The notes beneath the pieces were generated by a model. That model saw nothing but the letters and a program-made list of their open reading frames with translations. It had not been told where the DNA came from and did not search any database. A stretch of DNA of 64,000 nt from Mobula hypostoma. Lineage: Eukaryota. The DNA is taken from assembly GCF_963921235.1 (NCBI RefSeq), contig NC_086107.1:115012001-115076000 (forward strand), written 5' to 3'. Made by a program: the position numbers and the translations under genes. Positions 24,601 through 64,000 of the stretch are shown one piece after another. Numbering within the stretch: the first letter of the stretch is position 1; each line of letters opens with the position of its first letter.

Positions 24601-27600
24601 GCTTCACAGTTGGGATGGTGTGTTTTTGATGAAGGTGCGGTTTTATCAGACCATAGAACCTTCTTCCAGCTGACCTCAGAGTTCCCACATGCCTTCTGGG
24701 ATACTCTAGCCCAGATTTCATCCGAGTTTTTCTCTTTGCCACTCTCCCATAAAGCTGCGACTGGTGAAGCACCCGGGCAACAGTTGTTGTGTGCGCAGTC
24801 TCTCCCATCTCAGCCACTGAAGCTTGTAACTCCTCTAGAGTTGTCATAGGTCTCTTGGTGGCCTCCCTCACCAGTCCCCATCTTGCACAGTCACTCAGTT
24901 TTTGAGGACGGCCTGTCCTTGGCAGATTTACAGCTGTGTCATATTCTTTCCATTCCTTGATGATTGACTTAACTGTACTCCACGAGATATTCAGTGACCT
25001 GGAAATGTTCTGGTATCTATCTCCTGACTTCTAATTTTTAATAATCTTTTCGTGGAGTTGCCTGGAGTGTTCTTTTGCCTTCATGGTGTAGTTTTTGCCG
25101 GGATACTGACTCACCAGCGGTTGGACTTTCCAGATATAGCTGTGTTTTTACTACAATGAATTGAAACGCTTTGACTGCACACGGGTCTCTAAAAACAGTC
25201 TCCATTTAGCTAATTATGTGACTTCTAAAACCAGTTGGCTGCACCAGTAATGATTCGGTGTGTCACATTAAAAGGGGCGAAGACTTCTGCAATCAATTAT
25301 TTTGTGCTTTATATTTAGAGTTAATTTAGATTACTTTGTAGAGATCTGACACGGGAGAGCCTTTTTCTGTTGATTAGTGTCAAAAAAGTCAAATTAAGTC
25401 CACTGTGATGCAATGTTGTAAAAACAATAAAACATGAACATTTCCAAGGGCGGGGGGGGGGGGAAGGAGTGAATATTTTTTATGGGCGAGATATATGTTC
25501 TATCTCCTTTGTATATCTCTTTCAATGAAAAGAGGTGGTGGTGTTGGAGGTTGGGGGGCAGGGGGTTGGTTAAACGCAGAATTAACGACGGATGGGCACG
25601 TACCTGAGGGCTTCAACCTCTATCTTCGCCTTTTCTCCCCAGTCCGGTCGCCCCTGAATATCGAAACTCAGATTCAGGTTGATCTGGAAAGGAATGGAGA
25701 GGTGGATCTGAATGCAGCCGCCTGCCCGGAGGTGAAACTGGTGGGAGTGGAGGAGTGAAGAAGGAGGTGTGGTCTTACCGTAGTAGGGAACTACTCCATA
25801 GTTCTATAACAGCGGATAGATTGCGACTGCGGGTGGAGAGGAATGAGGGAGGCAGGGGGAGTCAGACCAGGAGAGAGAGATGGAAGAAAAGCAGATGCGG
25901 TTGGATTGTGGGAGAAACCGGGCCGGGGAGGAGGGAGAGGAAGAGAATCAGTGGGGAGGGAGGGAGGAGTGGGTGGGGGGGGGGGGGTCAGTCAGACCGG
26001 GAAGGGTGGGGAAGAAGATGAAGGGAGGAGGAGAGTGAGACTGGGAGGGGTAAGAGATGGATCAGACCCGGGGGCTGACACGGAGGAGGTGAAAGTCAGA
26101 TCGGGAGGAAGAAGGGGGTGAGGTTCAGACAAGGGAAGGATGGGAGGAGGGAGGGGATTTTCGAGGGTGTAACCCGATACCGGGGACTTACCTGGTGGTC
26201 CTGCCTGAAGATGGGGTGACTGATGAAACAAACTAACATCCCGCGATGGCCCTGGACCGGATCTGGGCTGGAGCTGCACTCGACCCTACTGTCCTGGGAA
26301 GAGAGGTAGAGAGTGTGGGTGCTGAGGATGGGGTGAACTTGAGGAGGGATGGGTGAAGAGAAGGAGTGGGGCGACGTGCGAGAGCGTGGGGCGAATAGGA
26401 ATATCTGTATGGGGTAGGCGACAAAGAGGGAACAGTGTGGGAGGGAACAGAGCGCTGCCTCTAAGTGGGGGGGGGGGCAAGGTCGGTTGAGGACGGAGAA
26501 CTTTCTTAGGGAACCGAGATTGAGACTGGAGGGCAAATGCGAAGGAAGCAGTGAAGAAGGAAGGCAAGGAAGCGGCGGCCATGAGGGAACAGCGTTGAGA
26601 AGGGAGGCGAACCGCAGGTGGGTCAGCGGATTGAAGGAAAGCTACGGAATGGAGGCAGAGAGGAACGTGGCTTTGCGGGAGGCTGGAGAATAATGAAGGA
26701 GCTCGGGGGCAGAGGGACTGAGATAAATGCGGAAGTCCCATGGGAAGGACGGGGAGCAATAAGGGAACGCTACGGATGGGAGGCGGAGGGGAATTAAGGA
26801 GTTCCGCAATAGAGATGGTGGGAGTTTCGAGAGAGAGAGCGAGAGAGGGCGGCGGGGCGGGGGGGGGGGGTGGGGGTGGAGAGAGAGAGAGAGAGAGGAA
26901 TGAGAAAGCTCGGGTGAATGGTCGGAAAGGAATGAGACCGCGAGGTGGGAGGACAGAGAGAAACGAGGGAGCTCGTTGGGAGAGCGTGCGTGAGCCGGCG
27001 GGGAACGAGGGAATTCTGCAGGAAGGTCAGAGGAATGATGGAGCGCCAGCGCTGTTTCGGGGAACCCCTCGTTCCCTCCTTCAGTTTTCCCTCACACTCA
27101 CCTTGGCGATATGGATGCGGCGTTGCTGGAGGCCGGGCGGGTGCCGGATGCGGAGGGAGGTGCTGTAGGAATCTTCGCCCCGGTTCTCCAGCAACAGCCA
27201 TAGGTACAGAGTGGTGTCCCGGCCCAGCACGAGGGTCTGTCTGACAGTGAGGGAGGGACAGAGGGTTAGTCCGGGGGTGGCAAGAGGGATCGGGCAGTTT
27301 AGGAGAGGGTGGGGTCTGGGAGAGAGGTAGAGTCAGTGTGTGGACGAGGGGTGAATTGGTACGACGAGGTCAGTGTGGGGAAAGGAGACACTTTGGGGAA
27401 GTCATTGGGAGGCTGGGTCGATGTGTGTGGGGAAGTCGGTGTGGGGCGTTTCAGGTGGGGAAAGGACAGGGAGAGGAGAAGCATTCTTCCCTCTGTCTTG
27501 GCGCTTTCTTACCCGCTGTATTTCACGTTGAGAATAAGGCGATCTGTGCATATCTCGTCATTCCCACAGTTACTCTCCATATGGAGCTGAAGAGGAAATG

Positions 27601-30600
27601 GCAGCGGATGAGTGTCCGATCAGGAAACACGCCCCTCTGCACCCCTCAGAGAGACATCTCTCCCTTCCCTCCTTCCCCATTGCCCATCACCTCATCACGG
27701 TCTATCACTCTCCTTCCTCCCCTATCCCCTTCCCGTTGTTCTTTCCGCTACTTCCTCTTATATCCTCTCTCGTCTCTCCCCCCCTCCCCTGTATTCTCTC
27801 CCCGCTCTCCCCTTCCTCATCCTCTCCCTGCCCTCTTTCCTCCCCTCTCCTCTCTCCCTGTCCCCCACCCTCTCTCCAACTCCCCTTTCCTCCTCATCCC
27901 TCTGCGCTACTCCCTGCCCCTGCCGAATGCCACCCTCCTCTCCCCCCACGCCACACCTTACCCGATGGTCGAGGGAGGTGCGACAGCGGTGGCTCAGAAC
28001 GGGAAGGGGGTGCTCCGTCACTCCTTCCGACGGCGGGTACGGTGTCACTGAGAAGTTGACGACGAGCAGCAGAGGGGTTAGCGAGTCCTCGACGCAGACC
28101 TGGGGGTAGAGCGCGGGAGAGCAGGCCAGTTAGTGCGAGACAGAGTTAGACCCGCCCTCCAAATGCTCCAGTCTCTGCCGGTATTACCAGGATTCCCACC
28201 CTCAGAAATCCCGGGATTTCACTGTCAGAATTCCCATGATTCCACCACCTGGCACCCCAGCATCCCACAGCAAAATTCTTATGATCCATCCCATGACATT
28301 CCCATGGTCCAGCTGCAGGATTTTCGGGATCACAGCGCCTACGTTTCAGCGTCCCATTACATAATTCCTGTAATTCCACCGCCATCATTCCTAGAAAACT
28401 ATTGCAGAATTCCCGTGGTTCTAACCCCTGTAGTTACCAGGGTTCATGTGCTAGAATTGCTGGGATCCCTGCGTCTGGAGTTCCTGGATACTCTCGCTGC
28501 CTTATGCACCAGGGATCCCACAGCCGGCACTTCCAGCAAACTGTTCCTCGGGATCCATTGCCCGGCGTTCCGGGCATTACCTCGCCCGGCACCCCCGGGT
28601 TCGCACTACCTCTCGCTCCCGGGATCCCAGCACCGTTATAAGGATATCCAACCACCAGAATTCCCGGTATCTAACCGTCGACAGATGTCTTATATTTCAA
28701 TAACCTCCCATTCCCTGTATCCCATGACTACCGTCATTCCAGGAATCCCACAACCTCCTGTTGTTAGCATCTCGGCGCCCAGTGTTCCCGGGACGCCACT
28801 GAAGAAGACTGAATAGTGAGGAGTGCCGAGGAACAGAGAGACCTCTGTATATGAAGGTATACGTCGATGTATAACGGTAGGACACGCACTACAGGGGTTT
28901 GACCAAATTCCCCTTCGGGGAGGTGGTGTAATTCGGACCCCAGAGGCTATATTTTGAGGAGTAGGGTGAACACCCACCGGCAACCAAATGTTGTGCTGGA
29001 CGCACGTGCTGTCTCCGGACAGGTTGAGGGAGCGGGTGAAAGGGTGTTCGCTTGTCTCCAGCTGAGCCCGGGGAGAGTGACGATTCCTGTCCAGGTCCAG
29101 CTGGTAGGTCAGGATCACAGTCAGCGGATCTGGAGGCGGCAGAAGTGGGAAGAGTTAACACAAATCATAGTACGGGCTATTCGGTCCACTCCATTGTGCC
29201 GACCTTGTAACCTAGCCCAAGATCAATCAAATGCTTCCCATCTACATTCCATCCACTCTTCTTTCAAATACGACCTTCTCAAAAAGTTCCGTACATATCC
29301 CTAGTGTACATGTCTCTATCACACCCACCAATCCGGAAGCAAATTCCACACACCCACTACTGTGTAATAAACAACCCACCTCCGGCATTCCCGCCGCCCT
29401 ATACTCCTCTGCAATCACTTTAAGTTGATGTTCTCCCGTACTGGCACCCTGGGGGTGGGGGTGGGGGGAGAGGCTCTCTCTGTAACTCGATCTATGCCTC
29501 TTATCGTCTTGTACACTTGTATCAAACCGCCTGCTATTTTCCTTTGCTCCGAAGAGTAAAGCCCGACGTTTCCTAATGAGACGTGTCTCCTTCAGGTCCG
29601 GAAAAAACAAAACTCAGGCAAGACCGTCTACGCATAAAAATATTCATAAACGCCTGTCCGATAATCGCCCGGCGTGCGGGGCTGGGAATCACGGGCACCA
29701 CTGACTGCGCCGGGGGAAAAAAACAGCGTCGCCGGTACCAGTCTTCGACGCCCTAAACAACTCCTATTAACTCGAGGCGTGCAACACAACGCTCGCCCCA
29801 ACAGCTTCCTCTCCCAGGTGAGCAGCCGTTGTCTGTGACAGCAGCAGGCGTGGGAAGGACTCTGCAGAGAGTTAACCACCGAAAAGGTGCCGGGCCAGAC
29901 AGCATCCCAGGCCGCTTACTCGGGGAATGTGCACACCAGCTCACTGACGTCATCACGGATACCTTGCACACGTCACTCACCCAGGCTGCTGTCCCCACGG
30001 GCTTCAAATCAGCCACCATTCTACCACCTTCAGAACTAAACTTGGCACTGGCGCCAATCATCGTGCAGTGCTTTGAATGGCCTGCAATGACACACAGCAA
30101 GACTTTCATCCCTACCAAATGGACGCTTTACAAATATGCTTACCGTCAGGAACGCTCGCCAGCAGATGTCATAGCATATGCCGTGCAGCTGGTCCTGATA
30201 CGCTTAGAAAACAGGGACACTTACGTAAGAATGCCGTTTCCGGATTTCAACACTCTTGCCCCACAGACCATGGGTGTTGAACTTCCTAACCAACAGAAGA
30301 TATTCAGGATGCACAATCGCTCCTCTCCATCATCCTCAACACGGGTGCCCCCAAGGCTGTGAGCTGAGCGCACTGTACACTCTGCTCACACGTTACTTCT
30401 GCGTGAACTGTACGCCGTAACCTACGCAGTAGCGTACGCGCGTTGTGAGCATTTATACCTGTGCGTTGGAATGTTTGCGTCGCTCGGCAATGCGCGCATG
30501 TCACGCATGCGCACTCACCTGCCCGCGCAAGGCTTCATGGTCATGGTAGTCTCGGGGTAAAGACGCGAGCGTCTTTTAAAACGCAAACAACAGGAATTCT

Positions 30601-33600
30601 GCAGATGCTGGAAATTCAAGCAACACACATCAAAGTTGCTGGTGAACGCAGCGGGCCAGACAGCATCTCTAGGAGGAGGTACAGTCGACGTTTCAGGCCA
30701 AGACTAACTGAAGGAAGGGTTAGTAAGAGATTTTTCAACTGAAGGAAGAGTTAGTAATGTCGCCTGTACCTCTTCCTAGAGATGCTGCCAGGCCTGCTGC
30801 GTTCACCAGCAACTTAGATGTGTGTTGCTTGAATTTCCAGCATCTGCAGAATTCCTGTTGTTTGCATTTTAAAATTCACTACGGCGAAGCCTCTTCCGGT
30901 GATGCCTATACCGAAGAAGTTTAGGTCTACCAAGCGGACCAATCACAGCTGCTGCAGTCTGCGTGTGCGCGTCGCAGCAACGCAAACTCTCGCGTAGGGT
31001 CTGCGTCGACGCAGACCTTACGGCGACGCGTAGAGCAGAGGTATAAATCAGCCTTAAGTATAAACCAGGCTTACTGCACGGCCAAATCCCTGAGTAATCA
31101 CACTGCCAAGGTCGCTGAGGACTCTATAGTAGTCGGGCTCATCACCAACTGCCTATACCAGAGGATCTGGAAGAGCTCAAGGCCCGGTGCCGGGCAAATA
31201 ACCTCTTTCTCAATGGCATTAAGGGAAAGTAGATGGTATTCGACTTCAGAAAAAAATGCACCACCTACACCCCTCTTTACATCGGCGACACGGGCTCTCA
31301 TGGTCCCAGAACACACCCTACACTAACAAGTAAATCAAAAATGCCTCTACTTTCTGAGAAGACTGAAGAGAGCTGGACTATGTACATAAATACTCACGTC
31401 CTCCTACAGATACGTCGAGAGTATCATAACATCACCGTGCGAATTAGAAACTGTACCTTAGGGGGCAAGAAAGCTCTACAACAGGTAGTCAAAACTGGTC
31501 AACGCGTCACCAGCACTCGCAGCCTATCCCTCAACAAGGGCATACAGCAAACTACCGGAAAGGAGCCAGCAATATCGTGAAGGATCCCAGCCACCCTCCT
31601 AATGGACTGTTTGTCCCACTAACATCGGAGAGGAGACTACGTAGCATCCACGCCAGGACCACTAGACTCAAAATCTGTCACTTTCCCCAAGCAGTGAGGC
31701 TGACAAACTCCTCTACCCACTGACCCACACAACTCCCCGTCACTCTCTGTCAGAATCACGTTATGTACAGATACCCCTATACCTAGCGTCATTCTATGTA
31801 CATACGACCAATCTATCCATATAAGCCATCTTATGTATCTATATTTATTGCGTTTTTGTGTTGCATCGGGTCCGGAGTATCAATTATGTCGCTCTCTTTC
31901 ACAACGATGCACTGGAAATTACATTAAACTATTTCGATTCTCTAATCCAGGCTATATTCCGGTAAATCTCTTCGGCACCCTCTCTGATGCTTTCACATCC
32001 TTTCTATAATGAAGGGACCAGAACTGAACACGTTTGATGCGATGCAAAAATATGTTGTTCTGTGGCAGCAGTGGGGGAGGAGGGAGGGAATACCGGGAGG
32101 GAGGAGTTACCTGGAGGAGCATGTCCCTTCACTGACAGATTAAAGCAGATGCTGACGTTGTTGACGAGCCGCGTCTTGGAATCGGACCACGGACACCGGT
32201 AACTCTGCAGACCCAGCACCTCCGGCTGGAACTGCAGATCCACGTCTACCTCCAGTACCGGCCTGGAACTGCACACAATGAAGGAAAATCGGTCTCTCCA
32301 TTACTGTTACCCCATACCGAAATACGGAAGAGAGGGAGCGGTAGGAATCGGGGGTTAAGTTTGAAGACGGAGAAGCGCGGGATCAGACTACGGTGGGGCC
32401 TGAGATCGCATCGGATTGCAGGCTGTGTTCAGCGCTGTTGTGGAGTCAGAAGCCTGTGGGAGAAGGGTTATGGTGGATCAGAGGTTATCGAGCCGGGTAT
32501 GAAGGGCGGGCTGTATTGAGACCAGAGGGCGCAGGAGGCTGGACATTTCTGGGGTCGGTTGTCATGTAACGAGGCTCGGTGGAGACGGGTCTCACCGGAG
32601 GAGGACGACGTTCCCGGCCGCACTGACCACGATGTCTGTCAGTTTATCACCCGTCATGTCCATAGACCCCTGCACTGATTGTCCGAAGAACATCAGGGGC
32701 GGGGAGAATTGGCCGCCAGTGATTCGCTGTGAGGAGAGAGGAGTCAGAGCCAGTTAACTCCCCAGGTAACTGTTAGCATCCTGGAAATGGCAATCGCCCT
32801 GGCAGCGGTAACAATGCTGGCAACGCCACCACCTTGGGAAAGTTTACCATCCCGGCCGCGGAGGTAATTCCGGCACGGTCACCGCTCTTGACTCTTTAAC
32901 TTTTCCCCACCCCATTAACCCCGCACCTCACCAGCCCTTTTAATCCTCCCCAAAAACCATTAACCCCCACTGACGCCTGTGACGGGTTCCTGAATTATCC
33001 CTTATGGACTGTGCTTTTAAAAGACAGAGCGAGAGCTGTGCAGCACAAACACTTTGTTATTAAGAGAGAGACCGACGAAGACTGCTCACAGTTTGTTTGG
33101 GAATTCTGCAAGGACACTGCCAGCTTCTGAGTTCCTACAGAGAGAGACGGGAGCAGCTACTTGATGGACAGCTGGTGTTCAGCATGCTGAGACAAATACC
33201 AGGTCGGCTGGTTGTTAGACACACCTGGTTTTGGACACTGGATGAGCTTTGTTGTGCCCACAGAAAGGTGGGTTTGTACAGGATCGATCAGGAGAATCAA
33301 TCAGTGGCTCTCACAGTGTGGAAAAGGTGTGACCGGTGGGAAGTTATTAGTGTGGCCAACCCTCGCCTGGGTTGATAACTCCACCACAGAAAACAGTCCC
33401 CTTGTTGTGGTCACATTCGGTGACATCCAAAGGATTTCAGAGGACAACGGGAAGAATCGACGGCATCGGCTTGCTCGAACAACCACAACACCTCTCTACC
33501 TCTCCATCACTGCTCAACTCAATACCACAGACTGAACTGAACTTTACCCATCACCGTAAGGCTGTGTCCATTTTACCCCTAGGCTTGAAGAAGCTGGGTT

Positions 33601-36600: not shown

Positions 36601-39600
36601 AACAACATTAGTGCTGCGGGAGTGGGATCACGGAGATGGTGAGGGACGGGGTCACAGACAGGGAGGGAAGGGGTCACAGAGACAGGGAGGGAGGGCGTCA
36701 CAGAGACGTTGAGGGATGGGACCGCAGAGACGGTTAGGGACGGGGTCACAGGGACGCTGAGGGATGGTGTCACAGAGATGCTGAGGGACGGGGTCACGGA
36801 GACGCTGAGGGACGGGGTCACAGAGACTCTGAGGGACGGGGTCACGGAGACGGTTAGGGACGGGATCACAGAGACGGTTAGGGACGGGGTCACAGGGACG
36901 CTGAGGGACGGGGTCACAGAGACAGGGGGGGACGGGGTCACAGAGACGGTGAGGGACGGGGTCACAGAGACAGGGAGGGAAGGGGTCACAGAGACGCTGA
37001 GGGACGGGGTCACAGAGACAGGGAGGGAAGGGGTCACAGGGACGCTGAGGGACGGGGGCACGGAGACGGTTAGGGACGGAGTCACAGAGACAGGGAGGGA
37101 AGGCGTCACAGAGACGTTGAGGGATGGGACCGCAGAGACGGTTAGGGACGGGGTCACAGAGACGCTGAGGGACGGGGTCACGGAGACGCTGAGGGACGGG
37201 GTCACAGAGACGGTTAGGGACGGGATCACAGAGACGGTTAGGGACGGGGTCACAGAGACAGGGAGGGAAGGGGTCACAGAGACGCTGAGGGACGGGGTCA
37301 CAGAGACGGTGAGGGACGGGTCACAGAGACGCTGAGGGACGGGGTCACAGAGACAGGGAGGGACGGGTCACAGAGACGCTGAGGGACGGGGTCACAGGGA
37401 AGGTGAAGGACGGGGTCACGGAGACGCTGAGGGACGGGGTCACAGAGACGGTTAGGGACGGGATCACAGAGACGGTTAGGGACGGGGTCACAGAGACAGG
37501 GAGGGAAGGGGTCACAGAGACGCTGAGGGACGGGGTCACAGAGACGCTGAGGGACGGGGGCACAGAGACAGGGAGGGACGGGTCACAGAGACGCTGAGGG
37601 ACGGGGTCACAGAGACGCTGAGGGACGGGGTCACAGGGACGGTGAGGGACGGGGTCACAGAGACAGGGAGGAACGGGATCCCAGAGACGCTGAGGGATGG
37701 GGTCAGAGAGACGCTGAGGGACGGGGTCACAGAGACGCTGAGGGATGGGGTCACAGAGACGCTGAGGGACGGGGTCACAAGACGCTGAGAGACGGGGTCA
37801 CAGAGACGGTGAAGGATGGGGTCGCAGAGGTGGGGAGGGCGTTGCTGAGATGATAGAGGTGTCTCTTTATGGGGATTTACCATTGTTTGCATGTGGTGTA
37901 CGGGACGGATTGTGCGTGGGAGGGAGATGGGGTTTTGGGGTTCTCACGTTTTCTGGCATTCATTTGCGTTTTTCTGTTTAATGGATGTCTGTGAAGGGTA
38001 AGAATTTCCGGTTGTATACTGTATACATTCTCTGATATTAAATTGAACGACTGAATCATTGAATTGAGAGAAAGATGTGTACAGGTGAGGAAGAGTGTAG
38101 CGAGGGAGGGAGTGACAGACGGGTAGGTGAGTAGGGAAGGGATAAAGGCACAGAGAGGAGAAGGCACGGTGTCGTAGAAAGGATGTCTAGGAGAGAGGGT
38201 GTTACAGAGACGAAAGGAGTGTGGGGAGGCAAGGTTCGCAGAGACGGGTTGGTAGGAAGTGTGGAGACGTGAGGGGTGTAGGGGAGGGAGAGACTGCAGG
38301 GTCGGGGAAGATCGGAGGGGTGACAATGTAAACTCGTGTCTCCCCTCCCTAGCCCGTTCCTCTGCTCTCCTTACCTTCCAGTCCAGTCACTGGATCTCTC
38401 CATGAACCCGACACAGTTCCGCCGCGGCTTCTTTTCCCCTGCCCCCCATCACCACTCCCACCTCCCCTGCACGACCCGCCCACCCCAGTCGTTCTGTATC
38501 GTTACCTAGGTAGGAGTTCTTCATGTCGCGGTGACTCTTGGAGACGTTAATGAAGGTCCTCTTCTCGTCGTGAATCTCGACCAGGCCTCCAGACCAGTCA
38601 TAGGCCCCCACGGCGCCCAGGATGACGGAGTCCTGGAAAGGGAGGAGAGAGAGGGAGTCAGTTTTCGGGAATGCTAGCATTCATCCCATCGAGGCTATAG
38701 CGGGGTGGGAGGGGAAAGGGATGTCAACGTTTATTGTTCATCCCCAGTTGCCCTTGAGAATGCAAGTATCTTGCCAGTACAGAGCCCATCGCCAATCGAC
38801 CCTCGAGAAGATGAACAAATGCCAGCATTTTTCAGCTATCCCAATCGCCTTTTCAAATGAGGCAGACTGCAGTCTCTTTCACCCAATCATAAGTGTCCCT
38901 CGACAAGGTGCAGGGGACGCCAGCACTTATCGCCCCGGTCGCTCTTTCAGAAGGTGGGGTAAGTCTTTCTTTTCCCATCCTCTCTGGTATCGAGGATCTC
39001 GCAGCACTGGTAGCTGACGGAGTTCCGGTACTCGGAACTGGCCCCGGCGAAGGGAAGCCGAAATACTTCTGCGGTGGGTACTTAAAGGGAAGGGTGCGGC
39101 ACCTAAGGGTGATGGTCGTAGTTGTGTTCGCTTCCTCGCACTCTCTGCAGCTGTGATCCCATCTTCCCACCGCTGGGCACATCTACAAGGAGCGGTGTTC
39201 GGTGAAACCGCATACAACAACAAGGTACCCCGCCATCCGGACCAGGTTCTCTTCTCTCTGTTGCCATCATTTGATGGTGTTTCTTTGTATTGACTGTGAA
39301 TGCTCACACAAATCAATCTCAGAGTTGTACCTGGTGACATATATATACTGCGATAATAAAGTTACTTTGGACTTCTGGACTTGTTCTGTGTAAGTGTGTA
39401 AGCACGGGACGGCAGGAATGAACTTTTTGGCATCCCGGCAAAGGTATCTATATCTTGGCTAATCAGAGGCGAGAGAGAGGAGGGCAAACATTGTAGCTTT
39501 ATTCAAGAAGGGCTGTAAGGACACGACAGGGAAATGCAGGCCGATAAGTCTAACATCAGTGGTGGGGAAAGTTACTAGATGTGATTCTGGGCGACGGGAT

Positions 39601-42600
39601 CTTCCCGCATTTGAATATAGAACATTTATATACATGGTTCCCTGAAAGGGCCAACAGAGCGGCGAAGAAGGGATTTCGCACGCGGCCTTCATCAGTCAGG
39701 GTACTGAGTACAGGATTCGAGATATCGTGTTGCAGTTGTTCAGTTTTGAGCTGCACTTTGAGAGGCCGCACTTTGTTTTCAGTTCTGGTCGCACTGCTAT
39801 AGGGAAACATGCCATTAAGCTAGAAACAGTCCGGAGGAGATTCACCATGAATTTGCCGAGATTTGAGGGTCTGACTTACAGAGAAGGTTAGGGTTAGAGA
39901 CGTACAGAGGGTGAAAGCAAACAGGCTTTTTCCACAAGATTCGGAGGAAGAGGGCTGCGGGTGAACAGCTAGGGATTTCCGGAGCGAAGGCATTTTTACT
40001 ACTTGGGGTAACAGAGAGGCAAGACTGCGCAGGCGCGTGACGTCGGCCAGTAGAGCGGGAAAAATTTAAAAAGAAGTCCGTCATATCCAGCGGGCAGCGG
40101 AGTGAGAGGTAGCAGAGTGAGAGGGCTTTGGCTCAACGGGCTTAGGCGGTAACGAGGTGAGGTAGACTTACCTGTGTTAATTGCGGAAAGTAGTAGTATG
40201 TGTGTGAGGCCGGTTTTTTACTGCTCGGTGTCGGATGTGGGAGGTCCTGCAGTCTCCCAGCCTCCCGGACGGCCATACCTGCACCCGATGCGTCGAGCTG
40301 CAGCTCCTAAGGGACTGTATTAGGGAACTGGAGATGCAGCTCAATGACCTTCGTCTGGTCAGGGAGAGCGAGGAGGTGATAGAAAGGAGTTGTAATCAGG
40401 TGGTCACACCAGGACCACGGGAGACAGACAAGTGGGTCACAATTAGGAGAGGGAAGGGGAAGAGTCAGGTACTACAGAGTACCCCTGTGGCTGTACCCCT
40501 TGACAATCAATACTCTTGTGTGAGTACTGTTGGGAGGGTGTGACGGCCTACCTGGGGGAAGCAACAGTGGCCGCGCCTCTAGCGCAGAGTCTGGCCCTGT
40601 GGCTCAGAAGGGTAGGGAAAGGAAGAAGGCAGAAGTGACAGGGGACTCTATAGTTAGGGGATCAGACAGGCGATTCTGTGGATGCAGAAAAGAAACCCGG
40701 ATGGTAGTTTGCCTCTCAGGTGCCAGGGTCCGGGATTTTTCAGATCGCGTCCAAGATATCCTGCAGTGGGAGGGAGAACAACCAGAGGTCGTGGTACATA
40801 TTGGTACCAATAACATAGGTAGGCAAAGGGAAGCGGTGCTGAAAACAGACTACAGGGAGTTAGGAAGGAAGTTGAGAAACAGGACAAAAAAAAGGTAGTA
40901 ATCTCAAGGTTACTGCCTGTGCCAAGCGACAGTGAGTATAGGAATAGAATGAGGTGGAGGATAAATGCGTGGCTGAGGGATTGGAGCAGGGAGCAGGGAT
41001 TCAGATTTCTGGATCATTTGGACCTCTTTTGGGACGGATGTGACCTGTACAAAAAGAACTTGTTGCACTTGAATCCCAGGGGGACCAATATCCTGGCTGG
41101 GGGGGGGGGAGGGGTTGCTAAGGCTACCGGGGAGAGTTTAAACTAGAATTGTTGGGGGGGGGTGGTTGGGAACCGAACGGAAGAGACTGGGGAAGAGGTG
41201 GTTGGTCAATGGGAGAGAGGGACAGAAGAGCAGAACTAGAGGGAGGTGATAGACAACTAAGGCGAAGAAAAGGAGTGAGAGAAGGGCCAGACCGGAGAAT
41301 GGAGAAGGAGAAAATGTAGGGGGAGAGATACTCCTTTAGAGAAATTGAATTTCACGCCATCAGGACGGTGGCTACACGGAAAGTATATGAGATGTTGCCT
41401 CTCTAAATTGAGTTTGGATAATCGTGGCAGTAGATGAAGCTATGGACAAGTATGTCAGAATGTGAATAGGAATTCGAATTATAATGTGTGGCCATCAGGA
41501 GACCTTGCCTTTTGGACAAAGGTTCAAAGCTTCCTTTTATTATCAAGAATATACGCAGAATACAACTCTGAGATTAATTTTCCCCAGATAGCCACAAAAT
41601 ACAGAAAAAAAAACATGGTTCCCCCGCCCGCACGAAAAAGAATAAGAAACAATGCTCGCCAACTCGCCCCAACCTTCTCACTCGCACGAAAACTATCTGA
41701 TAGCCAGCTCGGACACGGCAGCTAAAACATCAAACCCTAACCCACCCTAACCCCTCCCACGCAATCAAACAGCGGTAATACCATCAAACACCAAACCCCT
41801 CCCTCGCCCCAGAAAGTAACATATCGCCCACCCGCCAATCAGCATCAAGAAAGAAAACAGAGAAGCACTGAAGGAGACCAATATAAACTAATTATCATTG
41901 ATTAAAAGTGGCCTCCCGTGGAGAGAGACGGGTACATCAATTGGAAATTTGGGCTCAACTGGGTCAAATGGGATTGGCTCAGAAGGGGATGGGTTAAACT
42001 CAGGCAAATGGGACAGATTCAGATGGGGAAAGGGATAAACTCAGGCAAATGGGACAGCCTCAGATGGGGAAAGGCTTAAACTCAGGCAAATAGGACAGGT
42101 TCAGATGGGGAAAGGGTTAAACTCAGGCAAATGAGACAGGTTCAGATAACTCAGGCAAATGGGACAGCCTCAGATGGGGAAAGGGTTAAACTCAGGCAAA
42201 TGGGACAGCCTCAGATGGGGAAAGGGTTAAACTCAGGCAAATGGGACAGGTTCAGATGGGGAAAGGGTTAAACTCAGGCAAATGGGACAGGTTCAGATGG
42301 GGAAAGGGTTAAACTCAGGCAAATGGGACAGCCTCAGATGGGGAAAGGGTTAAACTCAGGCAAATGGGACAGGTTCAGATGGGGAAAGGGTTAAACTCAG
42401 GCAAATGGGACAGGTTCAGATGGGGAAAGGGTCTGTTTTCCTTATTTTAGGAATCAGAGTGGTGGCTTCCAGAGTCACTCCTCTGAGAGATATTCCCCAT
42501 CGATCTGAGAAGACTGGGGAGCGGATTTCATTCTTCTGAGGGGTCAGCAGGTGCAGAGGGGCGGAAGGGCTCTCACCTCGTTGAAGAGGACGCTAAATCC

Positions 42601-45600
42601 CACCTGGGACATCTCCATCTCGAAGGAACTCTCGCTGGAGGATTGCGTTCCTGTGGAAAACAGCGTAATGTCATGGGGGCATGGCGTGGGAGAGGGATCG
42701 GGTAGTTGAGGGTAAACGGTAGGGGAGGGGATGAAGAAAGGAAGTGAGAGATGGCGAGGGCTCACAAACTGTTAGGACGCAGGTGAGTGCGGGGGAGAGC
42801 AGGGTTATGGGAGGAGAATCGACCTGGTGGAGGAGGGGAAGATTCACGGAATGTGGGATGGGGTAGAGTGGGAGGGCAGGGCAGGGAGAGAGAAAAAGAG
42901 GGAGATTGATAAAGAAAGTGGGAGGAGGGGAGTAGAGGGGGAGGGTATGGGGTTTATGGAGAGGGGAGGGGGCGAAGAGTGAATGGAAGATGAGTGAGGA
43001 GAGTAGGGAGTGGAGCGAGGAGAGAGGGAGAGGGGCAAAAGGTGAAGGGGAGAGGGAATGAGCGGGCAGGGAGAGGGTGGTGGGCGGTAAGAGAGAGACG
43101 GAGGTGCCGGGAAGGGTGGGTGAGGGACTGTTGGTGAGGAATGGCTAGAGGGCGACAGCAAGGAAAAGGCGGAAAGGGACGGGAAAAGTAGACTTGGACG
43201 AAGTTGGAGGGAGCGAGAGGGACCCCGGTGTCCCGTGTGAAGCCACATCCTCGTTTTGAGTCCTCACCCTCGATCTCGTAGATTTTGGACTTGAGATCCT
43301 GGAAGACAGATTGCAGCTCACTGTAATCTTTCACCTTGATCAGATAACTGGGGGACGAGGCGATTAATGTCAACTCCGTCAGACCCTTGCTGCCACTCTC
43401 GAAACTATTTCCAACCTGTGAAAAGGGCAGAATTAGAAACGGGCTCAAGGTTTCAGTTTCACAGGGGAGAGGAATGGCGTTAGTAATCAGGGATCGTGTC
43501 ACAGCTGCAAAAAGGAAGGATATCGTGGCGGGATTACCTACTGGAGAATGCCGTGCGGGATACTGAGGCTCTAGAGATGGTAGGTAAGAACATAGGGATC
43601 TCTATCCGTTTGGTGTGACGGCAGACGATTCCAGCATCTTCAACGTGATTCTACCACTAAGCATATCTTTCCCCTCTGCTCTCCTTCATATTTAATAGGG
43701 ATCACCCTTCCCTCGCCTCTGATGTTTGCCTGGCACTTACCCCGGCAAGAGTGACGCGCCCCTACACCTCCTTTCTCACCACCAGTCAGGGCTCCAAATA
43801 GTCATTCCAGGTGAGGCGAGACTACACCTGCGAGTCGCTCGTGGTCATCCAATGCTACCGCTACGGATGCGCCACAAAAGGCAGATCTCCCGGTGGCGAA
43901 CCATTTCAATTCGACTTCCCATTCACATTCCGATATGCCTGTGCATGGCCTCCTCTAGCCAAAGTGAGACCAAGCTTATGTCGGAGAAGCAACATCTCAG
44001 ATTCTGTGTGGGTAGCCTCTAACCTGACGGTATAAACATCAATTTCTCTAACTTCCAGTAATTTCTGCCCCTCCATCCCTTTCTTCGTTGTTCATTACTC
44101 TGGCTGGTTACCCTTTCACCCCCTCTCTTCTCCTCATCTGTCCATTATCTCCCGCTGGCGCTCCTCCTCCTTTCATTTCTCCCAAAGTCCTCTATTAACC
44201 ATATAACCATATATAGCTATATAACAATTACAGCACGGCAACAGGCCATCTCGGCCCTTCTAGTCCGTGCCGAACTCTTACCCTATCCTAGTCCCACCGA
44301 CCTGCACTCAGCCCATAACCATCCATTCCTTTCCTGTCCATATAGCTATCCAATTTAACTTTAAATGACAACATAGAACCTGCCTTAACCACTTCTGCTG
44401 GAAGCTCGTTCCACACAGCTACCACTCTCTGAGTAAAGAAGTTCCCCCTCATGTTACCCCTAAACTTTTGTCCTGTAATTCTCAACCCATGTCCTCTTGT
44501 TTGAATCTTCCCCACTCTAACCACGTCAACTCTATCAATCCCCCTCATACTTCAAAAAACCTCTATCAGGTCCCCCCTCAACCTTCTATGCTCCAAAGAA
44601 TAAAGACCTGCCTTGTTCAACCTTTCTCTGTAACTTAAGAGATGAAACCCAGGCAACATTTTAGTAAACCTCCTCTGTACTCTGTCAATTTTATTGACAT
44701 CTTTCCTATAATTCGGTGACCAGAACTGCACAGAATACTCCAGATTTGGCCTTAACAATGCCTTATACAAATTCAACATTACGTCCCAACTCCTATACTC
44801 AATCAACAGGAATTCTGCAGATGCTGGAAATTCAAGCAACACACATCAAAGTTGCTGGTGAACGCAGCAGGCCAGGCAGCATCTCTAGGAAGAGGTACAG
44901 TCGACGTTTCGGGCCGAGACCCTTCGTCAGGACTAACTGAAGGAAGAGTGAGTAAGAGATTTGAAAGTTGGAGGGGGAGGGGGAGATCCATCGATTCTGA
45001 TCTCCCCCTCCCCCTCCAACTTTCATATCTCTTACTCACTCTTCCTTCAGTTAGTCCTGACGAAGGGTCTCGGCCCGAAACGTCGACTGTACCTCTTCCT
45101 AGAGATGCTGCCTGGCCTGCTGCGTTCACCAGCAACTTTGATGTGTGTTCTTATACTCAATGCTCTGATTTATAAAGGCAAGCAAACCAAAAGATTTCTT
45201 CACCGCTCTGTCCACATGAGATTCCATCTTCAGAGAACTATGCACCCTTATTACTAGATCCCTCTGTTCTACAGCATTCTTTAATGCCCTACCGTTTACC
45301 ATGTATGTCCTATTTTGATTAGTTCTACCAAAATGTAGCACCTCACATTTTTCAGCATTAAACTCCATCTGCCATCTTGCAGCCCACTCTTCTAACTGCC
45401 CTAAATCTCTCTGCAAGTTTTGAAAACCTACCACATCATCCACAACTCCACCTATCTTAGTATCATCTGAATAATTACTAATCCAATTTACCACCCCATC
45501 ATCCAGATCATTAATGTATGTGACAAACAACATTGGACCCAGTACAGATCCTTGAGGAACACCGTTACATACCGTCCTCCAATCTGACACACAGTTATCC

Positions 45601-48153
45601 ACCACTACTCACTGCTGGATCAATTTTACTGCTTCAATATTAATACCTAATGATTGAACCTTCCTAACTAACTTTCCGTGTGGAACCTTGCCAAAGGCCT
45701 TACTGAAGTCCATATAGACAACATCCACCGTTTTACCCTCGTTAACTTTCTTAGTAACCTTATCAAAAAATTCAGTAAGATTTGTCAAACATGACCTTCC
45801 ACGCACAAACCCATGTTGACTGTTCCTAATCAGACCCTATCTATCCAGATAATTATATATACCATCTCTAAGAATACTTTCCATAAATTTATCCACCACT
45901 GACGTCAAACTCACAGGCCGATAACTGCCAGGTTTACTCTTAGAACCCTTTTTAAACAATGGAACAACATGAGCAATACGCCAATCCTCCGGCACCATCC
46001 CCGTTTCTAATGACATTTGAAATATTTCCGTCAGAGCCCCTGCTATTTCTACACTAACTTCCCTCAAGGTCCTGGGGAATAACTTGTCTGGACCTGGAGA
46101 CTTATCCACTTTTATATTCCTTAAAAGTGCCAGTACTTCCTCTTCTTTAATCGTCATACTTTCCATAACTACCCTACTTGTTTCCTTTACCTTACACAAT
46201 TCAATATCCTTCTCCTTAGTGAATACCGAAGAAAAGAAATTATTCAAAATCTCCCCACCTCTTTTGGCTCCGCACATAGCCGCTTATAGATAGCAATATT
46301 ATATAGCAAATTTTAGAACTCTTCTTCCCTTTATCTCTTTCTGCAGCTTCGTACGACAACTCCTCTCCCTATATCCATGCACGACCCATGTCCCTCATCT
46401 CGTCTCACCTATCACCTGCCAACTTGTACCCCCCTCCCCGCCTTCTTATTCTGACCCGCCCATTCCTTTCAAATCTTCATGAAAATGTATCTATTAATTC
46501 CCCTCATAGATGCTGCCTAATCGGTTGAGTTCCTCCAGCAGTTTGTATGTGTTGCTCAATTTTGTAGCATCTGCAGAATTTCTTGTGTTGGGAAAGATGA
46601 AAAATAACAGGGTTATAGGGTGACTTCCACTTCCCAAATATTGATTTGCACCTCCATAGGGCAAGAGGATTAGATCAAATTGAATTTGCAGATGCGTCCA
46701 GAAACGATTCTTGACACAACGTGTAGACAGGCCGACTCGAGTACAGACTATACTGGATCGGTTACTAGGCAATTAATCAGGTCAGGAGACGTTTTGGAGT
46801 CAGTGACCACAACGCCATGACCTTTACAAGGATCGGAACAGACGGCATGTGAAAATATTTAACTGGGGTACGACGAATCAGGTAGGAACTTGTGAGTGTA
46901 AATTGGGAGCAGATACTGTCAAGGAAATGAACCAAGGAAATGAACCAAGGAAATATGGAGGTTGGTTAAGGAGTATTTTCGAGGAATTCTTGATGTTTGT
47001 TCCATTGAGGCATGAAAAGGATGGTACGGTGAGATGAGGAACATATAGTCAAGAAGAAGAGGAAAGCACAGAACAGAACAGCCTAGTACTGTATGTGTTG
47101 TGCCGAACTTTTAACCTACTTCTAGATAAAGCAATCTTCCTTTCATCCGTGCGTATCGAAGAGTCTTTTAAATGTCAGCAATGTATCTGTCTCGACCGCC
47201 AGCCATGGCAGGGCGTTCCATGCACTTACCACGCCCTGTGTAAAACATTTACATCTGACATTCCCCTATATATTCGAGAAAACATCTTAAAATTATGCCC
47301 CCTCCCCCGGGGGAAAGGGTACTGGCTGTCCACTCTATCTATGCCTCTTATCATCTTATACATCTCTGTCAAGTCGCCTCTCGTCCTCCTTCTCTCCAAA
47401 GAGAAAACTGTAGCTTTTGCTCCAGATGCTCTGCTGCGGTCGCCGCTGACATTTAATTGTCCTTTCGTGTTTTTGAGTAAGTGGAGTTAAGGATCATGTT
47501 AGGATTCTGGGGACAGTTATAAGGGAGAATGAGAGGAATTAGAGGTGTTGCCGGAATTTTGGTTCCTAAATCTCCGCTACGCGTTTGAAGAACGCCGACG
47601 CAACGCAGGCATAGGATATCCCAGTGCAGAGACGGGATGTTTAACCGGACTTTGGGCTGACAGACCAGCGTGAACGAAAGCTGGTAGTTCCGCCAGCAGC
47701 GAAATCTCGGCGGGCTCCAGAGTGCGAGTTCCACGCTGCTGGAGCAACGAGGTCCGATGCTGCCGGAGCTAAGTGGTTTCGGGAATCGGTGAGACCAGAG
47801 TTCGAAGCCTAGCGTTTCAGGGGCCGGCATCGACGAGTCCGCATTTCGACGCCTGTGTACGGTGATCGGAGGTCCTGTGTTTGATGGCGACGATCGAGGC
47901 CATCGAATTGGAAGTCCGGAAGTGGAGGTCCGTCGGCCGGAGTACCGGATCTGCGAATCTCTGTGGGTTGGCTGGAGAAGTGGAAAGCCCAATATCGACG
48001 TATTGGCGTTCGACTCCGAAGCTGCAGGGTCGATGCCGAAGCATACGAACTGGAGTCTGGGGTGAGGGGACTGTGTATGTGCATGGGTAAGGAGGAGGAA
48101 TTCGGCGTGTTTTGCTGTTGCAGTGTTGTTTGTTGCATCCTGTGCGCGCGCGC

Positions 48154-48194
<41 letters not shown>

Positions 48195-48254
48195 CGCGCG
48201 CGTGTGTGTGTGCGTGCGTGTGCCTGTGTGTGCGTGTGCGCGCGCGTGCGCGTG

Positions 48255-48304
<50 letters not shown>

Positions 48305-48322
48305 TGTCTTTGCGTGCCCGTG

Positions 48323-48358
<36 letters not shown>

Positions 48359-51300
48359 CTGCATTGTTCTACCAAGGATTGTGAGCATGCTATCTTGACG
48401 CGGGGATGTATAGCAACATTTACGGGATGCCCCCAGCACATCCTTGGATATGTCGGCTGTTAACGCAAGAGGCACATTTCATTGTATGTTTCGATGTACA
48501 TGTGATAACTAAACTTGAATCTTGAACTTTGCTCAATCAATCCCTTAAGACGTGTTTACCAGGCAACATCCTGGTAAATCTGCTCTGCGCCCCCTCCGAA
48601 GTTTTCACATCTTTCCTATAATGAGGCGACTAGAAATGAATGCAGCCCTCCAAGCGTGGCATGTGTTTTACAGAGCTGTCGCAGCGCTTGAGGTCACTTG
48701 AGGTTTAGGAAGCAAACAACAGACAAGGCTCCGAAGAGTTAAAAGGTAGCTGGAAAGAAGGTTAAAAAGAGACTTAAGACAGGTGGAAAGGAACACGAGA
48801 TAGCCTTGGCGAGTAGGGTTAATGAAAATGCACAAAATACACATAAATGCTAGAGGAATTCAGCAGTCAGGCTCCATCTATTGAAAAGAGTAAACAGTCG
48901 ACGTTCGGTCTTCTTCAGAACTGAGATGGAAGGGGGAAGATGACTGAATTAAGAAGGTGGGGCGGAGGAGGGGAAAAGGCTAGCTGTAACGTGATAGGTG
49001 AAGACAGACGGGTGGAAAAAGTCCAGGGCTGGAGAGGAAAGAATCTGATAGAAGAGGAGAGCGGACCATAGGAGAAATGGAAAGAGGAGAGGACCCAGGG
49101 GGAAGTAATAGGCAGGTGGGAAGAACTGAAAGGTGGCAATGGGGAGTAGGGGAAGGGAAGGGGAATTTGTTCACCGGAAGGAGAAATCGATATTCATGGC
49201 AGGGAGGGAATTCTCATTGAAACCTCCCACATACTTAATGGCCTGGATAGAGTGGACATAGAGAGGATGTTTTCACTACTGTGAGAATATAGGCTCCGAA
49301 GGTATAGTGTCAGAATGAAAGAGGGCCTTTAAGAACTGAAACGACGACGAACTTCTTCCGCCAGATTGTAGGATTCGTTGCGACAAAGGCTGTGAAGACC
49401 AAATCTTTGGGTATATTTCCGTTAGCGATTCCCGCGCCGTCCCTCACGAAGATATCCTCTTCTTCCCTCACTGATCTCGCTCTACCTCCCACACTGAAAA
49501 TTCCCTTTCCACACGGAGACCCCGTGTCTGTGCGACACGGACCTTCCCCTCCGTCCCACATTCATCCCACCCACATACACACGGGGAGGGGGGGGGAGCG
49601 GGCACCTACCCCAATTGCACAGCGAGTGATCTTTTCCGCCTGCGCCCTCTTGATGACCTGCTCCAGATTGATGTCTCCTGGCGTGGTCGCTCCATCCGTG
49701 ATCACAATCAGGAGCTTCGCTGCCCCTTTTCTTGCCCCACCGTCCTCCGTAAACACAGAGAATCTGCGCAACACAGGAGAGAGGAGTGTCACATTAGAGA
49801 TAGGAGGAGGGAAGGCCATTCTTCCCCCCCCCCCGATTCAAATAGGTATGCATCATATGTTTTCCCTTTCACCATCTCTTCCTCTCACTCTATCTCTCTC
49901 TCCCTCCTCTCTCTGTCTCACACACACACACACACACACCCTCAGAAGCACCCCCCCCCGTTAATTTAAATCAAAACCACCCCCTTCTTTCCAGTGGCAT
50001 CACAGTACTCCAGGAATAGAAAAAAATACATCTAAATATTAGTGGTCGGGAGAGGGAGGTATTGAATCATTTCCAGAACCGAAAAACATCCCTCCACCCT
50101 GTCCCATCACACACACCCGGGATCAGACACAGAGTGAAGTTCCCTCCACACCGTCCTATCACACACTCCCGGGGCCAGACACAGAGTGAAGCTCCCTCCA
50201 CACCGTCCCATCACACACTCCCGGGGTCAGACACAGAATGAAACTCCCTCCACACTGTCCCATCACACACTCTCGGGGTCAGACACAGAGTGAAACTCCC
50301 TCCACACCGTCCCATCACACACTCCCGGGTCAGTCACAGAGTGAATCTCCCAGCACACACTCCCAGGGTCAGACAGAGTGAAATAACCTCTACACTGTCC
50401 CATTACGCATTCCAGGGTTTAGACACAGCCTGAAATAACGTGCACACGTCCCACTACACACTCCCGGGGCCAGACACAGAGCGAGGTTCACTCTATACCG
50501 TCCCATCACACCTCCATCTCCCCCCCCCCACCCCCATCCCGGGGTCGGACACACAGTGAGGCTCCCTCTAACCCTGCCGTCACACACTCCTGGTCAAGGA
50601 TTAGTTACATGGTATAATTGATCCCAGTTGCAGTAAATGTCGAACTCTCCATCAGCTCGATGCTATGCACGATATTATGCAGATTCCTTCGTTGCTCCTG
50701 GAATGTCTTAAAGTTCAGTTCCGTTCTGACTAAGGCAGAGTATTGAACGATGGCAAACTGGAGAGAGATGAAGGCTTCATTGAAGACAGAAAGAGACAGT
50801 CCTGTGTATTTCCTCGACTAGCCCCACTGACCTGCTCTATCCCCACAGTCCCATGTCACTCCCCAAACTAATCCCACTGTCCCGCCCTTTCCCCACAGCC
50901 ACGTGTCAGTCCCGAAATTTATCCCCACTATCTCGCTCTTTCCCAACAGCCACGTGTGACTCCCGAAATTTATCCCCACTGCCCCGTGCTCTCTTCACAG
51001 CCTGTGCCAGCCTCCAAACTAATACCCCTGCCAGACCCAAATCCTCTCTTTTCTCCCTCTCCTCCCCACTCCTGACGTGAACCCTGCCCCGTCACCGACC
51101 TGCATGCCGGCGTCTGATGCCTGTATCATATCCCACATGAACTTTTTGTTCGCCTCCAGGTCCCTTTTGGTGAGACTGTTGGACCCATCGAAGAGGAAGA
51201 CCACATCTACCATCTCAGGGATACACTCTGGCAGAGAGAGGGAGAGCGGCAGAGGATGAGAGAGGGATGGACGGCGAGGCACTCAGCACCTCGGGAATTG

Positions 51301-61027: not shown

Positions 61028-64000
61028 GGGGAGGGGGGGTGTCACGTGATGACGTGGGATTGAGACGTGTAAATCCAGCTCTCCCGCAACAAATCAGTAA
61101 AGTACCGTTTAAATAAAACAGTTGGTAAATAGTTTCTGAAAACTATTTATAAACTTTGTAAGACTACCTTACGATATGCCTCCTAAACCGCAACAAAAGA
61201 AGTCTGCTGTTGCGAAGCAGCCGCGAGACGGGAAGAAAAAAGGGCCTACTGCAACGATGGAGCCTCGGACTCAGGTTGGATCTCCTTCGGTAGAACAGGG
61301 AGCAATGGCGGTGGCAACGGTTTCTCCGAAGAAGACAACGGAAATGCGCATGCGCAAATCGACACAACGTAAACTACAAGAACCGACACCCACTGCAATT
61401 GAAAATGACTCAGAGTCAGAACTGGATTCTGCAGGGAACACAGATGAAGAAGAGGAGGAAGAATTGGAAGCGAGTGGAAGTAAAGGAGATGATAGAGACA
61501 TAAGAGAGGCTGTATTGCAATCAACGGCTGAATTAAGGAAAGTAAGAGAAGAGCTTAGAGATACGAAGAATAAAGTTATGGAAAGACAGGACAAAATGGA
61601 AAAGAAGCTTCAGAAGATGGAAAGAGAAATGGGGCTTATGAATGATAGAGTGGAAAAAACAGAAAATGATTTGCTTGTCTGGAACTCGGAAAGAAACCGA
61701 CTCTTGGAGAAAGTGGACATGTTGGAAAATTTCAGTAGACGTAATAATATTAAAATTGTTGGTCTTACAGAAGGTATGGAAGGAGAAAGGCCAATAGAAT
61801 TTTTTCAAAGAGGGATCCCGGATGTTTTGCAAATGGGAGAGGAGGTTCGACCGATTGAAATTGAGGGGGCACATAGAGCTCTAAGACCAAAACCAAAAGA
61901 TGACCAATATCCACGATCGATTTTAATAAAATTCTTAAGATTTCAAGACAAGGAAAGGATTCTACAGGCAGCTGCTCGAGCTGCCAAAGATAGAAAAGGG
62001 CCATTGATAATTAAAGGGAAACAAAGTTTTTTTCTACCCTGATATAAGTTACGAACTTTTGAAGAAAAAGAAGAAGTTTAATCCAGTGAAAAAAACCCTA
62101 TGGGATCATGGTTATCAATTTATACTGCGTTATCCTGCAACTTTGAAGATTTTTTTGCCTGGTGGAGAAAAAAGATTTTTTGATGACTACCAGAAAGCAG
62201 AGCAGTTTGTGCGAGATTCTCTGAATATTCACCAGCTACAAGAACAAACTCAGGAGAGCGAGATAGATTGAAGATGAACATTGGGTTAAAGAATGGATTT
62301 GTTGGATTTTCGAAGCTGGATGAATGTATAAATATATTATTAATTATATGAGGGGGTAAGAAAGGTTAATACTGGAGGAAATTAGTTGGGAATAATAATA
62401 CTAATTTTGTTTATATATATATAACTTTTTTTGTTGCGGGGGAGCTGGAAGAAGCACTGATCGATTGCTACGTTAATCATGTGTGCAAGCGTGGCTATTG
62501 CCACGACCCGTAAAATGGAGGGGGGTAGTGTTGTGTATCCTTTCATTCACAACATTAGTGGGGGGGGGGTATTTTGTTTTTTTTTTCTATCTCTTTTTCT
62601 TTTTGCCTGGAAGGTTGGGAGGGGGGGAACACATAGCAACATGGTGAAGTTTAAAGAGATTCCCCAAGGAACTATGAGAGTTGAGAAGATAAGTAATGTT
62701 TTAGATTGGAGTAACTTTGTTAAGAATAATGACTAATTTATTGAATTTTCTGAGTTTTAATGGTAATGGGCTTAATGGACCAGTGAAAAGAAAAAGAATC
62801 TTAACATATATTAAAAAAATGAAGATAGATTTAGCTTTTTTTTACAGGAAACGCACCTAACAGAAACAGAACATCAGAAACTAAAGAGAGATTGGGTGGG
62901 TAATGTTGTTGCGGCCTCATTTAATTCAAAAGCGAGGGGAGTAGCAATTTTGATCAATAAAACGTTACCAATTAGAATACAAAATGTAATAACTGATTCT
63001 GCGGGGAGATATGTGATTATACACTGTCAACTTTTTTCCGAACTATGGACTTTTATGAATATTTATGCACCAAACGAAAATGATGCAAAATTCATACAAG
63101 AAGCTTTTTTGAATTTGGCGGATGCACATGAAAAAATATTAATTGGAGGAGACTTTAATTTTTGCTTAGACCCAGTCTTAGATAGATCAACCAAGGCTGT
63201 TATAAAATTGAAGGTAGTAAATTTAACTTTATCATTGATGAAAGATTTAAATTTGATTTGATATATGGAGATATTCTCATAGACATAAAACTTACTCAAG
63301 GATAGATTTTTTTCTATTATCAATGCATATTCAACACAGAGTGAAAAATATGGAATATAAAGCAAGAATATTATCAGATCATTCTCCTTTATTAATGACA
63401 ATAATAATGGCTGATAAGGAAGAAGTGGCTTATAGATGGAGATTTAATTCAACATTATTAAAACGTCAAGATTTTTGTGATTTTATGAAAAAGCAGATTC
63501 AATTTTTTTTGGATACAAATTTTCATTCAGTGGAGGATAAATTTATATTATGGGATGCGATGAAAGCATATCTTAGGGGCCAGATAATAAGTTATACGTC
63601 TAAAATTAAGAAAGAATATATGGCAGAGCTAGATCAATTGGAAAAAGAGATTACAAGAATAGAAAAAGAATCTCAAAGATATATGTCAGAAGAAAAACGA
63701 AGACAACTTGTCAATAAGAAGTTACAATATAATACGCTTCAGACATATAGAACGCAAAAAGCAATTATAAGGTCTAAACAAAGGTATTAGGAGTTAGGTG
63801 AGAGAGCACATAAAATTCTTGCCTGGCAGTTGAAAACAGAACAAGTTTCCAAAACAATAAATGCAATTAGAACAAGGGCAAATAAAATATCTTATAAATC
63901 TCTTGAAATAAATGAAACCTTTAAAAATTTTTATTCTGAATTATATCAATCAGAATCCCAAAATGATGTTAATGAGATAGAAAGGTTTTTATCACAAGTT
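61028..64000 (+). mobile_element. L1-clade LINE with its 5' end present: ORF1 (61176-62271, one frameshift) and ORF2 endonuclease from ~62729, running off the window
   Basis: ORF1 coiled coil and LENFSRRNNIKIVGL..IEGAHR..PRSILIKF; ORF2 LQETHL, NIYAPN, GGDFN, LSDHSPL, WDAMKAYLRG; disabling indels. Confidence 0.93.

Follow-up and report, generated by a model that had tools for sequence, protein, structure and literature searches.

Insertions of Penelope-like elements (PLEs) have been described with an inverted, 5′-truncated copy and a tail of 30-40 bp on one end (PMC8557442, accessible sections). In the rotifer element Pen2a_Av, inverted pLTRs come with target-site duplications (TSDs) of 8-10 bp and a 31-bp tail, and self-priming was proposed (PMC3846280, available excerpts). 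Penelope of D. virilis has inverted repeats that vary in size and a 34-bp repeat (PMC2377424, available excerpts). The hammerhead of PLEs is minimal, lacks helix III and needs a tandem partner, a single motif having shown no cleavage; paired minimal hammerheads are found 100-700 bp apart on opposite strands (PMC4209133, accessible portion). Finally, the protein of an anole PLE (Poseidon PAc, Anolis) cuts and extends both target strands in vitro, where insertion proceeds without hammerhead cleavage; two RT start sites bound the tail, and a dimer is predicted (PMC11167929). Inverted insertions are not a topic of its main text, where the word 'inverted' appears once, for a blocking nucleotide.

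We analysed a window of 64,000 nucleotides from the ray Mobula hypostoma (contig NC_086107.1, positions 115,012,001 to 115,076,000), in which a small palindromic insert is a real and ordinary instance of this published architecture: inverted pLTR, 30-40 bp tail and TSD. Like the inverted-pLTR units of Pen2a_Av and D. virilis Penelope, as far as the excerpts of those papers describe them, it has head-to-head pLTRs, a tail on one end, a TSD and 5′ truncation; the inverted part varies in size and the parent encodes RT followed by GIY-YIG. Unlike the units described there, its arms are trimmed to 150-190 bp with no coding sequence left. The TSDs of the ray family are mostly 13-15 bp, longer than the 8-10 bp of the rotifer cases, and the ATG of the ray parent lies downstream of the tail, not within the pLTR. 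By itself the locus, one of thousands, carries little weight; the statistics of its family bear on how Penelope-like elements form inverted repeats.

Structure of the insert and its host gene

The insert occupies 44791-45161 with its TSDs and is about 350 bases long (348-nt RNA). The fold-back geometry given in a preliminary description was re-found in full: two arms of 151 nt each (44838-44988 and 44999-45149), 99% complementary, with a sole mismatch at 44961/45026, a spacing of 10 nt, and a 34-bp extension on the left side only. Since the left arm matches the family template as far as 44990, the filler at the head-to-head junction is reduced to 8 nt (44991-44998). The tail-bearing arm (44838-44990) contains the 3′ part of the pLTR in sense on the minus strand and is 94.4% identical to the full-length copy L142; the tail-less arm (44999-45149) contains the same part in sense on the plus strand, its outer end lying ~35 nt inward of where the tail ends. 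The left extension (44804-44837, minus strand) is the Penelope tail, of the kind described in the accessible sections of PMC8557442. Full-length copies have these 34 nt after the 5′ pLTR; in the insert, the other arm lacks them.

The TSD noted earlier at the insert ends is likewise present. Its core is an exact 10-mer (44794-44803 = 45152-45161), extending to 13 nt (44791-44803 and 45149-45161) with one mismatch allowed; the longer form is probably the right one, as it fits the usual 13-15 bp of the family.

Retrotransposition into a CR1 element inside an integrin intron, as first described, is supported. The host is a LINE fragment with an RT portion, a 3′ end and several stops (44200-46290, minus strand, borders approximate), which we take to be CR1, Pfam giving RVT_1 only (E 3e-12, for the RT portion upstream). 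When the insert is excised in silico, the minus-strand frame reads through again ([12 protein letters not shown]), confirming the clean split. Contigs from sequencing runs derive from repeat copies and stop short of spanning the locus; those that seemed to read through an empty site turned out to be other CR1 copies and are no evidence for an empty allele. The fragment lies in an intron (43416-49609, minus strand; exon borders from GT/AG and translation) of an I-domain integrin alpha gene, whose minus-strand exons encode VWA pieces, FG-GAP and GFFKR motifs and whose nearest solved chains are alpha-X, alpha-M and alpha-L. Within this intron, the insert sits ~1.4 kb ahead of the next exon. The gene, of leukocyte type, extends over 18600-52000 on the minus strand, with exons from the I-domain to GFFKR.

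Remains of an older Penelope are found at 43629-44182 and 46370-46590; they comprise GIY-YIG and 3′ UTR followed by pLTR and tail, and are 70-84% identical to the young family. The CR1 appears to split this old Penelope, and the young insert splits the CR1, a nesting of three layers. A second head-to-head pLTR pair lies at 30576-30927; its centre is rearranged, and beyond the tail its right arm continues into the opening codons of the parental reading frame. Two further Penelope arms sit within CR1 RT sequence (L045 and L020), L045 at the very motif targeted here. That motif is possibly a favoured target, or the coincidence reflects the mere abundance of CR1.

The parent family and its sampled insertions

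A match to full-length copies confirmed that the arms derive from a Penelope pLTR: their sequence is that of a Penelope-like family's 3′ pLTR with its tail, 94-95% identical to L142. Longer arms of the family extend through the 3′ UTR into GIY-YIG and then RT. One 641-aa frame in a long arm matches RVT_1 (E 9e-5) and GIY-YIG (E 6e-4), both under the Pfam cut-off, and the GIY-YIG cut-off is passed by a different copy of the family; the parent ORF thus has the RT-then-GIY-YIG order of EN+ Penelope-like elements. Among 69 scored protein matches, 68 are free of internal stops and nine hold a 1,043-codon open frame. Nine loci read pLTR-tail-ORF-pLTR, with direct pLTRs 3,477-3,516 bp apart (~3.5 kb), the partial tandem arrangement of such elements. 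In five of these nine, the 5′ and 3′ pLTRs differ at subfamily-diagnostic columns, so that two different templates may sit on one RNA.

The family is abundant: 12,166 sites in the 3.48-Gb genome are identical to a 62-mer taken from the tail-bearing arm. The description of the insert as young suits the family; the window copy itself, at 94-95% to the full-length copy, does not belong to the subfamily with the open frames, as judged from the loci sampled. Its arms differ at 1/151 positions, where the sample averages 2.4% (230/9,612), so it is either recent or of typical age within a young family. The nearest sampled arm differs from it at 2/118 positions.

We sampled the first 90 of 100 listed 62-mer matches, all on one contig (C1), with flanks of 1.5 kb for 30 loci and ~5.6 kb for 60. 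The sample is restricted to arms with an intact tail 62-mer. An adjoining inverted, tail-less partner accompanies 42/90 tail arms, so the combination of a 30-40 bp tail on one end with an inverted 5′-truncated copy is common to the window and to these 42 loci. A TSD of at least 8 bp is found at 36/42 paired loci and at 28/48 solo arms; its length is 13-15 bp in 45 of these 64, a figure slightly inflated by microhomology. The pairs form a continuum from ~170 bp to 4.4 kb, 29 of the 41 complete ones totalling no more than 400 bp. At the 42 junctions, the arms overlap through microhomology in 18 cases, abut in 5 and are separated by extra sequence in 19.

One insertion, L064 (G000:C1:5524700-5530700), is an inverted 4.4-kb unit with a 14-bp TSD and both arms longer than 2.1 kb, which differ by 2.7%, subfamily alleles included.

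Origin of the paired arms

During L1 twin priming, cDNA synthesis starts from the 3′ ends of both target strands, and joining of the two cDNAs leaves an inversion with a TSD. The second L1 primer anneals at another internal site of the RNA, whereas in the ray insert both cDNAs would copy the same pLTR, hence a palindrome. A literature search returned no title or abstract that applies twin priming to PLEs, subscription papers being thinly covered.

Building on the observed family identity, TSD, tail asymmetry, unique junction, arm-length continuum and open-frame parent, we consider it likely that the insert is a doubly 5′-truncated, non-coding insertion of an endonuclease-bearing Penelope-like element, and that its palindrome was made in that single event by two primed cDNAs. 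We infer concurrent synthesis of the two, followed by end joining. The protein of the element would nick both target strands ~13 bp apart. Each target 3′ end would then prime a cDNA on pLTR RNA, one at the tail end and the other ~35 nt inward; both cDNAs would halt after ~150-190 nt, and repair would link their 3′ tips through the 8-nt filler.

The outer ends of the arms fit this scheme. Tail arms, which had to reach position 7 to be sampled, begin at positions 1-5 in 90/90 cases, and the outer ends of their partners fall at 29-46 in 34/42, matching two priming sites ~35 nt apart. Poseidon PAc has the two-start and both-strand features proposed here for the ray family, which we know as Penelope-like.

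The main alternative keeps the same Penelope origin and supposes that a single cDNA primed itself and was copied back, central deletions and gene conversion having later produced the asymmetric and discordant cases. It has a published precedent in the self-priming of PMC3846280 (available excerpts), and several junctions are short palindromes or microhomologies, the 18/42 overlaps among them. The position of the inner ends also speaks for it. Arm lengths are coupled (Spearman 0.73), with 13 pairs having both arms long, 27 both short, 2 mixed and none of the opposite mix (Fisher p 4e-9); inner ends lie within 10 nt of each other in 18/41 pairs, and in 6 of the 15 long pairs they lie within 70 nt, where 1.3 such pairs would be expected (permutation p 0.0006, one value having been hand-extended beyond the reference end). 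Such coupling speaks for copy-back or for a dimer that synthesizes both strands concurrently: a fold-back predicts it directly, and twin priming explains it only in the concurrent case. Arms are moreover more alike within a locus than between loci (2.7% against 6.6% divergence).

Other observations are difficult for copy-back. The tail-less partner exceeds the tail arm by more than 10 nt in 15/41 pairs, and the reverse holds in 8/41; since a copied-back strand cannot exceed the tail arm, a simple copy without later deletion does not account for these loci. The outer end of the tail-less arm clusters where a second RT start is expected. Rare variants are present on both arms of a locus at just 6 of 9,612 positions. 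Finally, at 23 non-CpG subfamily-diagnostic columns the arms disagree in 18/240 comparisons against 207/9,404 elsewhere (p 1e-5, totals including the window locus), although such polymorphic columns are perhaps hypermutable and later gene conversion may also yield discordance. Two or more discordant diagnostic sites occur in 4/39 loci at nominal p < 0.01, one of which survives correction for 39 tests. Altogether, copy-back seems unlikely, and we judge twin priming about four times as probable. The window locus alone cannot tell the two apart, as its arms agree at 13/13 polymorphic columns.

Twin priming, with the coupling and the discordance taken together, leads us to a tentative proposal, to which we give slightly less than an even chance: a Penelope protein dimer may act as a two-headed copier, both target strands being primed and the two RT sites advancing and stopping together on two pLTR templates. 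We propose that these could be two RNAs, or both pLTRs of one RNA. If true, this would explain how arms stay coupled up to 2 kb while occasionally carrying different subfamily alleles, and would yield tail, TSD and inverted repeats in one step. The coupled lengths, the longer tail-less arm and the mixed-allele arms point to concurrent priming on both target strands, which agrees with the in vitro results of 2024. The more than 12,000 near-intact arms are a ready data set for this question.

The inner ends are not evenly spread: 48/129 fall at family positions 124-143, at the 5′ edge of hammerhead helix I, including 25 at 130-135. In window coordinates this hot spot corresponds to 44924-44943 and its mirror, with a pyrimidine tract and an AG just upstream; the inner ends of the window copy itself lie past it, at family positions 188-190. 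The hot spot also shows in contigs from other organisms; a joint of both arms at position 133 recurs in 11 contigs of one such run. The simplest reading may be that an RNA 5′ end lies at the hot spot. Several other explanations were set aside. Truncation at the hammerhead cut site concerns 5/129 inner ends (at 100-104), too few to call, and a spliced template using the AG just 5′ of helix I is not supported, as the sequences beyond the hot spot have no common exon. An apparent fixed stop or scar at tail-arm positions 188-191 was a ranking bias of the top BLAST matches toward the query, as 0/90 unselected tail arms end at 183-207.

The preliminary description treats the insert as a young, non-autonomous unit that moves as a palindrome, which would mean that the complete fold-back is copied into RNA and inserted anew. 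The check suggested for it, a count of other palindromic copies with their own TSDs, does return many; ordinary Penelope insertions pass the same count, so it leaves the readings unseparated, and the identity of the junction is what distinguishes them. A 42-mer across the window loop has one match in 3.48 Gb with up to one mismatch allowed, the best genome-wide matches to the complete insert are all joined differently, and the remaining 40 sampled fold-backs all have junctions of their own. Given this diversity and the spread of sizes, the window copy takes its place among ordinary insertions whose sizes grade into one another. MITEs are likewise small non-coding fold-backs, but they are fixed units with identical interiors, present in several copies with the same inner junction and separate TSDs, against the single match found here. 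Non-LTR retrozymes (10.64898/2026.07.22.740005, accessible portion) resemble the insert in being small, non-coding and hammerhead-bearing, but consist of tandem direct repeats of hammerhead monomers, where the insert has two copies in inverted orientation only. What speaks for mobility as a palindrome is the free sense tail at the end of the minus-strand RNA, and one pair among the 42 sampled fold-backs that has a common junction with separate flanks, in exactly two genomic copies. For this assembly the idea is largely refuted, and we regard it as very improbable.

The two loci of that pair, L054 (G000:C1:3842161-3842285) and L065 (G000:C1:5740556-5740680), are 1.9 Mb apart. They have an identical junction and a private variant in common, differ in flanks, in TSDs and at two positions of the tail arm, and are the only such copies genome-wide; they may represent a re-copied fold-back or ectopic gene conversion.

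That the palindrome is an assembly or library artefact, a hairpin chimera, is hardly credible in view of the TSD at both ends within an in-frame host CR1, the one-sided tail, the arm mismatch, the same geometry at nearly half of the sampled loci and similar fold-back joints in short-read contigs from other organisms.

Hammerhead motifs and predicted fold of the hairpin

The hammerhead motif claimed for each strand was found on both, by motif search and inspection: CTGAnGA...CGAAAC occurs once per strand of the insert and nowhere else in the window. The first copy lies at 44898-44935 on the minus strand, with a predicted cut between 44903 and 44902, and the second at 45052-45089 on the plus strand, with a predicted cut after 45084. 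Each consists of a 5-bp helix I, CUGACGA, an extra A, a 4-bp helix II and GAAAC-GUC. Inspection and folding against the accessible portion of PMC4209133 identify a minimal PLE hammerhead, with C3-A9 core, extra base, G10.1-C11.1, GAAA, palindromic 15.2-16.2, NUH triplet and helices I and II. The type I core, the extra nucleotide between 9 and 10.1, G10.1-C11.1, the palindromic 15.2-16.2 and the lack of helix III are all as described there; the window motif, known here from its sequence, differs in its 4-bp helix II and in that each copy faces its full complement.

An Rfam scan of the insert returned no hammerhead family at E up to 1. Matches to Rfam miRNA models stayed below gathering scores and mirror the hairpin. 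In isolation, the hammerhead motif folds no better than shuffled sequences (z -1.2). The hairpin of the whole insert has a folding z-score of -35 against 100 shuffles.

Folding predicts a long hairpin, in agreement with the ~150-bp double-stranded RNA anticipated in the integrin pre-mRNA. The minus-strand transcript would form a rod of -333 kcal/mol. Forcing one hammerhead fold raises the energy from -333.3 to -258.9, a cost of 74 kcal/mol; whichever strand is transcribed, the antisense arm precedes the sense arm, and each transcript contains one sense motif. Both the cost and the order of transcription make cleavage unlikely, the hammerheads being predicted to be buried in the rod. The motif would then be a passenger of the pLTR, inactive inside the rod. 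The rod was first pictured as a ribozyme-bearing RNA that is the same for transcription from either side; the ribozyme is predicted to be masked, and the sense tail ends the minus-strand RNA only.

As an intronic duplex of 151 bp, the predicted hairpin would be a plausible substrate of ADAR. Should short fold-backs make up about a third of the 12,000 arms, as they do in the sample (29/90), the genome would hold several thousand near-perfect hairpins of 100-200 bp, many of them intronic. As the sample implies thousands of similar hairpins, nothing marks that of the window as selected.

Other repeats surround the insert in the window. A tandem array of ~1.2 kb with a 24-nt-like unit lies within the integrin gene at 36613-37839, and more arrays are found at 41951-42432 and 50084-50593. 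From their translations, the fragments at 23918-25463 are presumably Tc1-like transposase, and those at 61140-63787 what we take to be an L1-like ORF1/endonuclease remnant.
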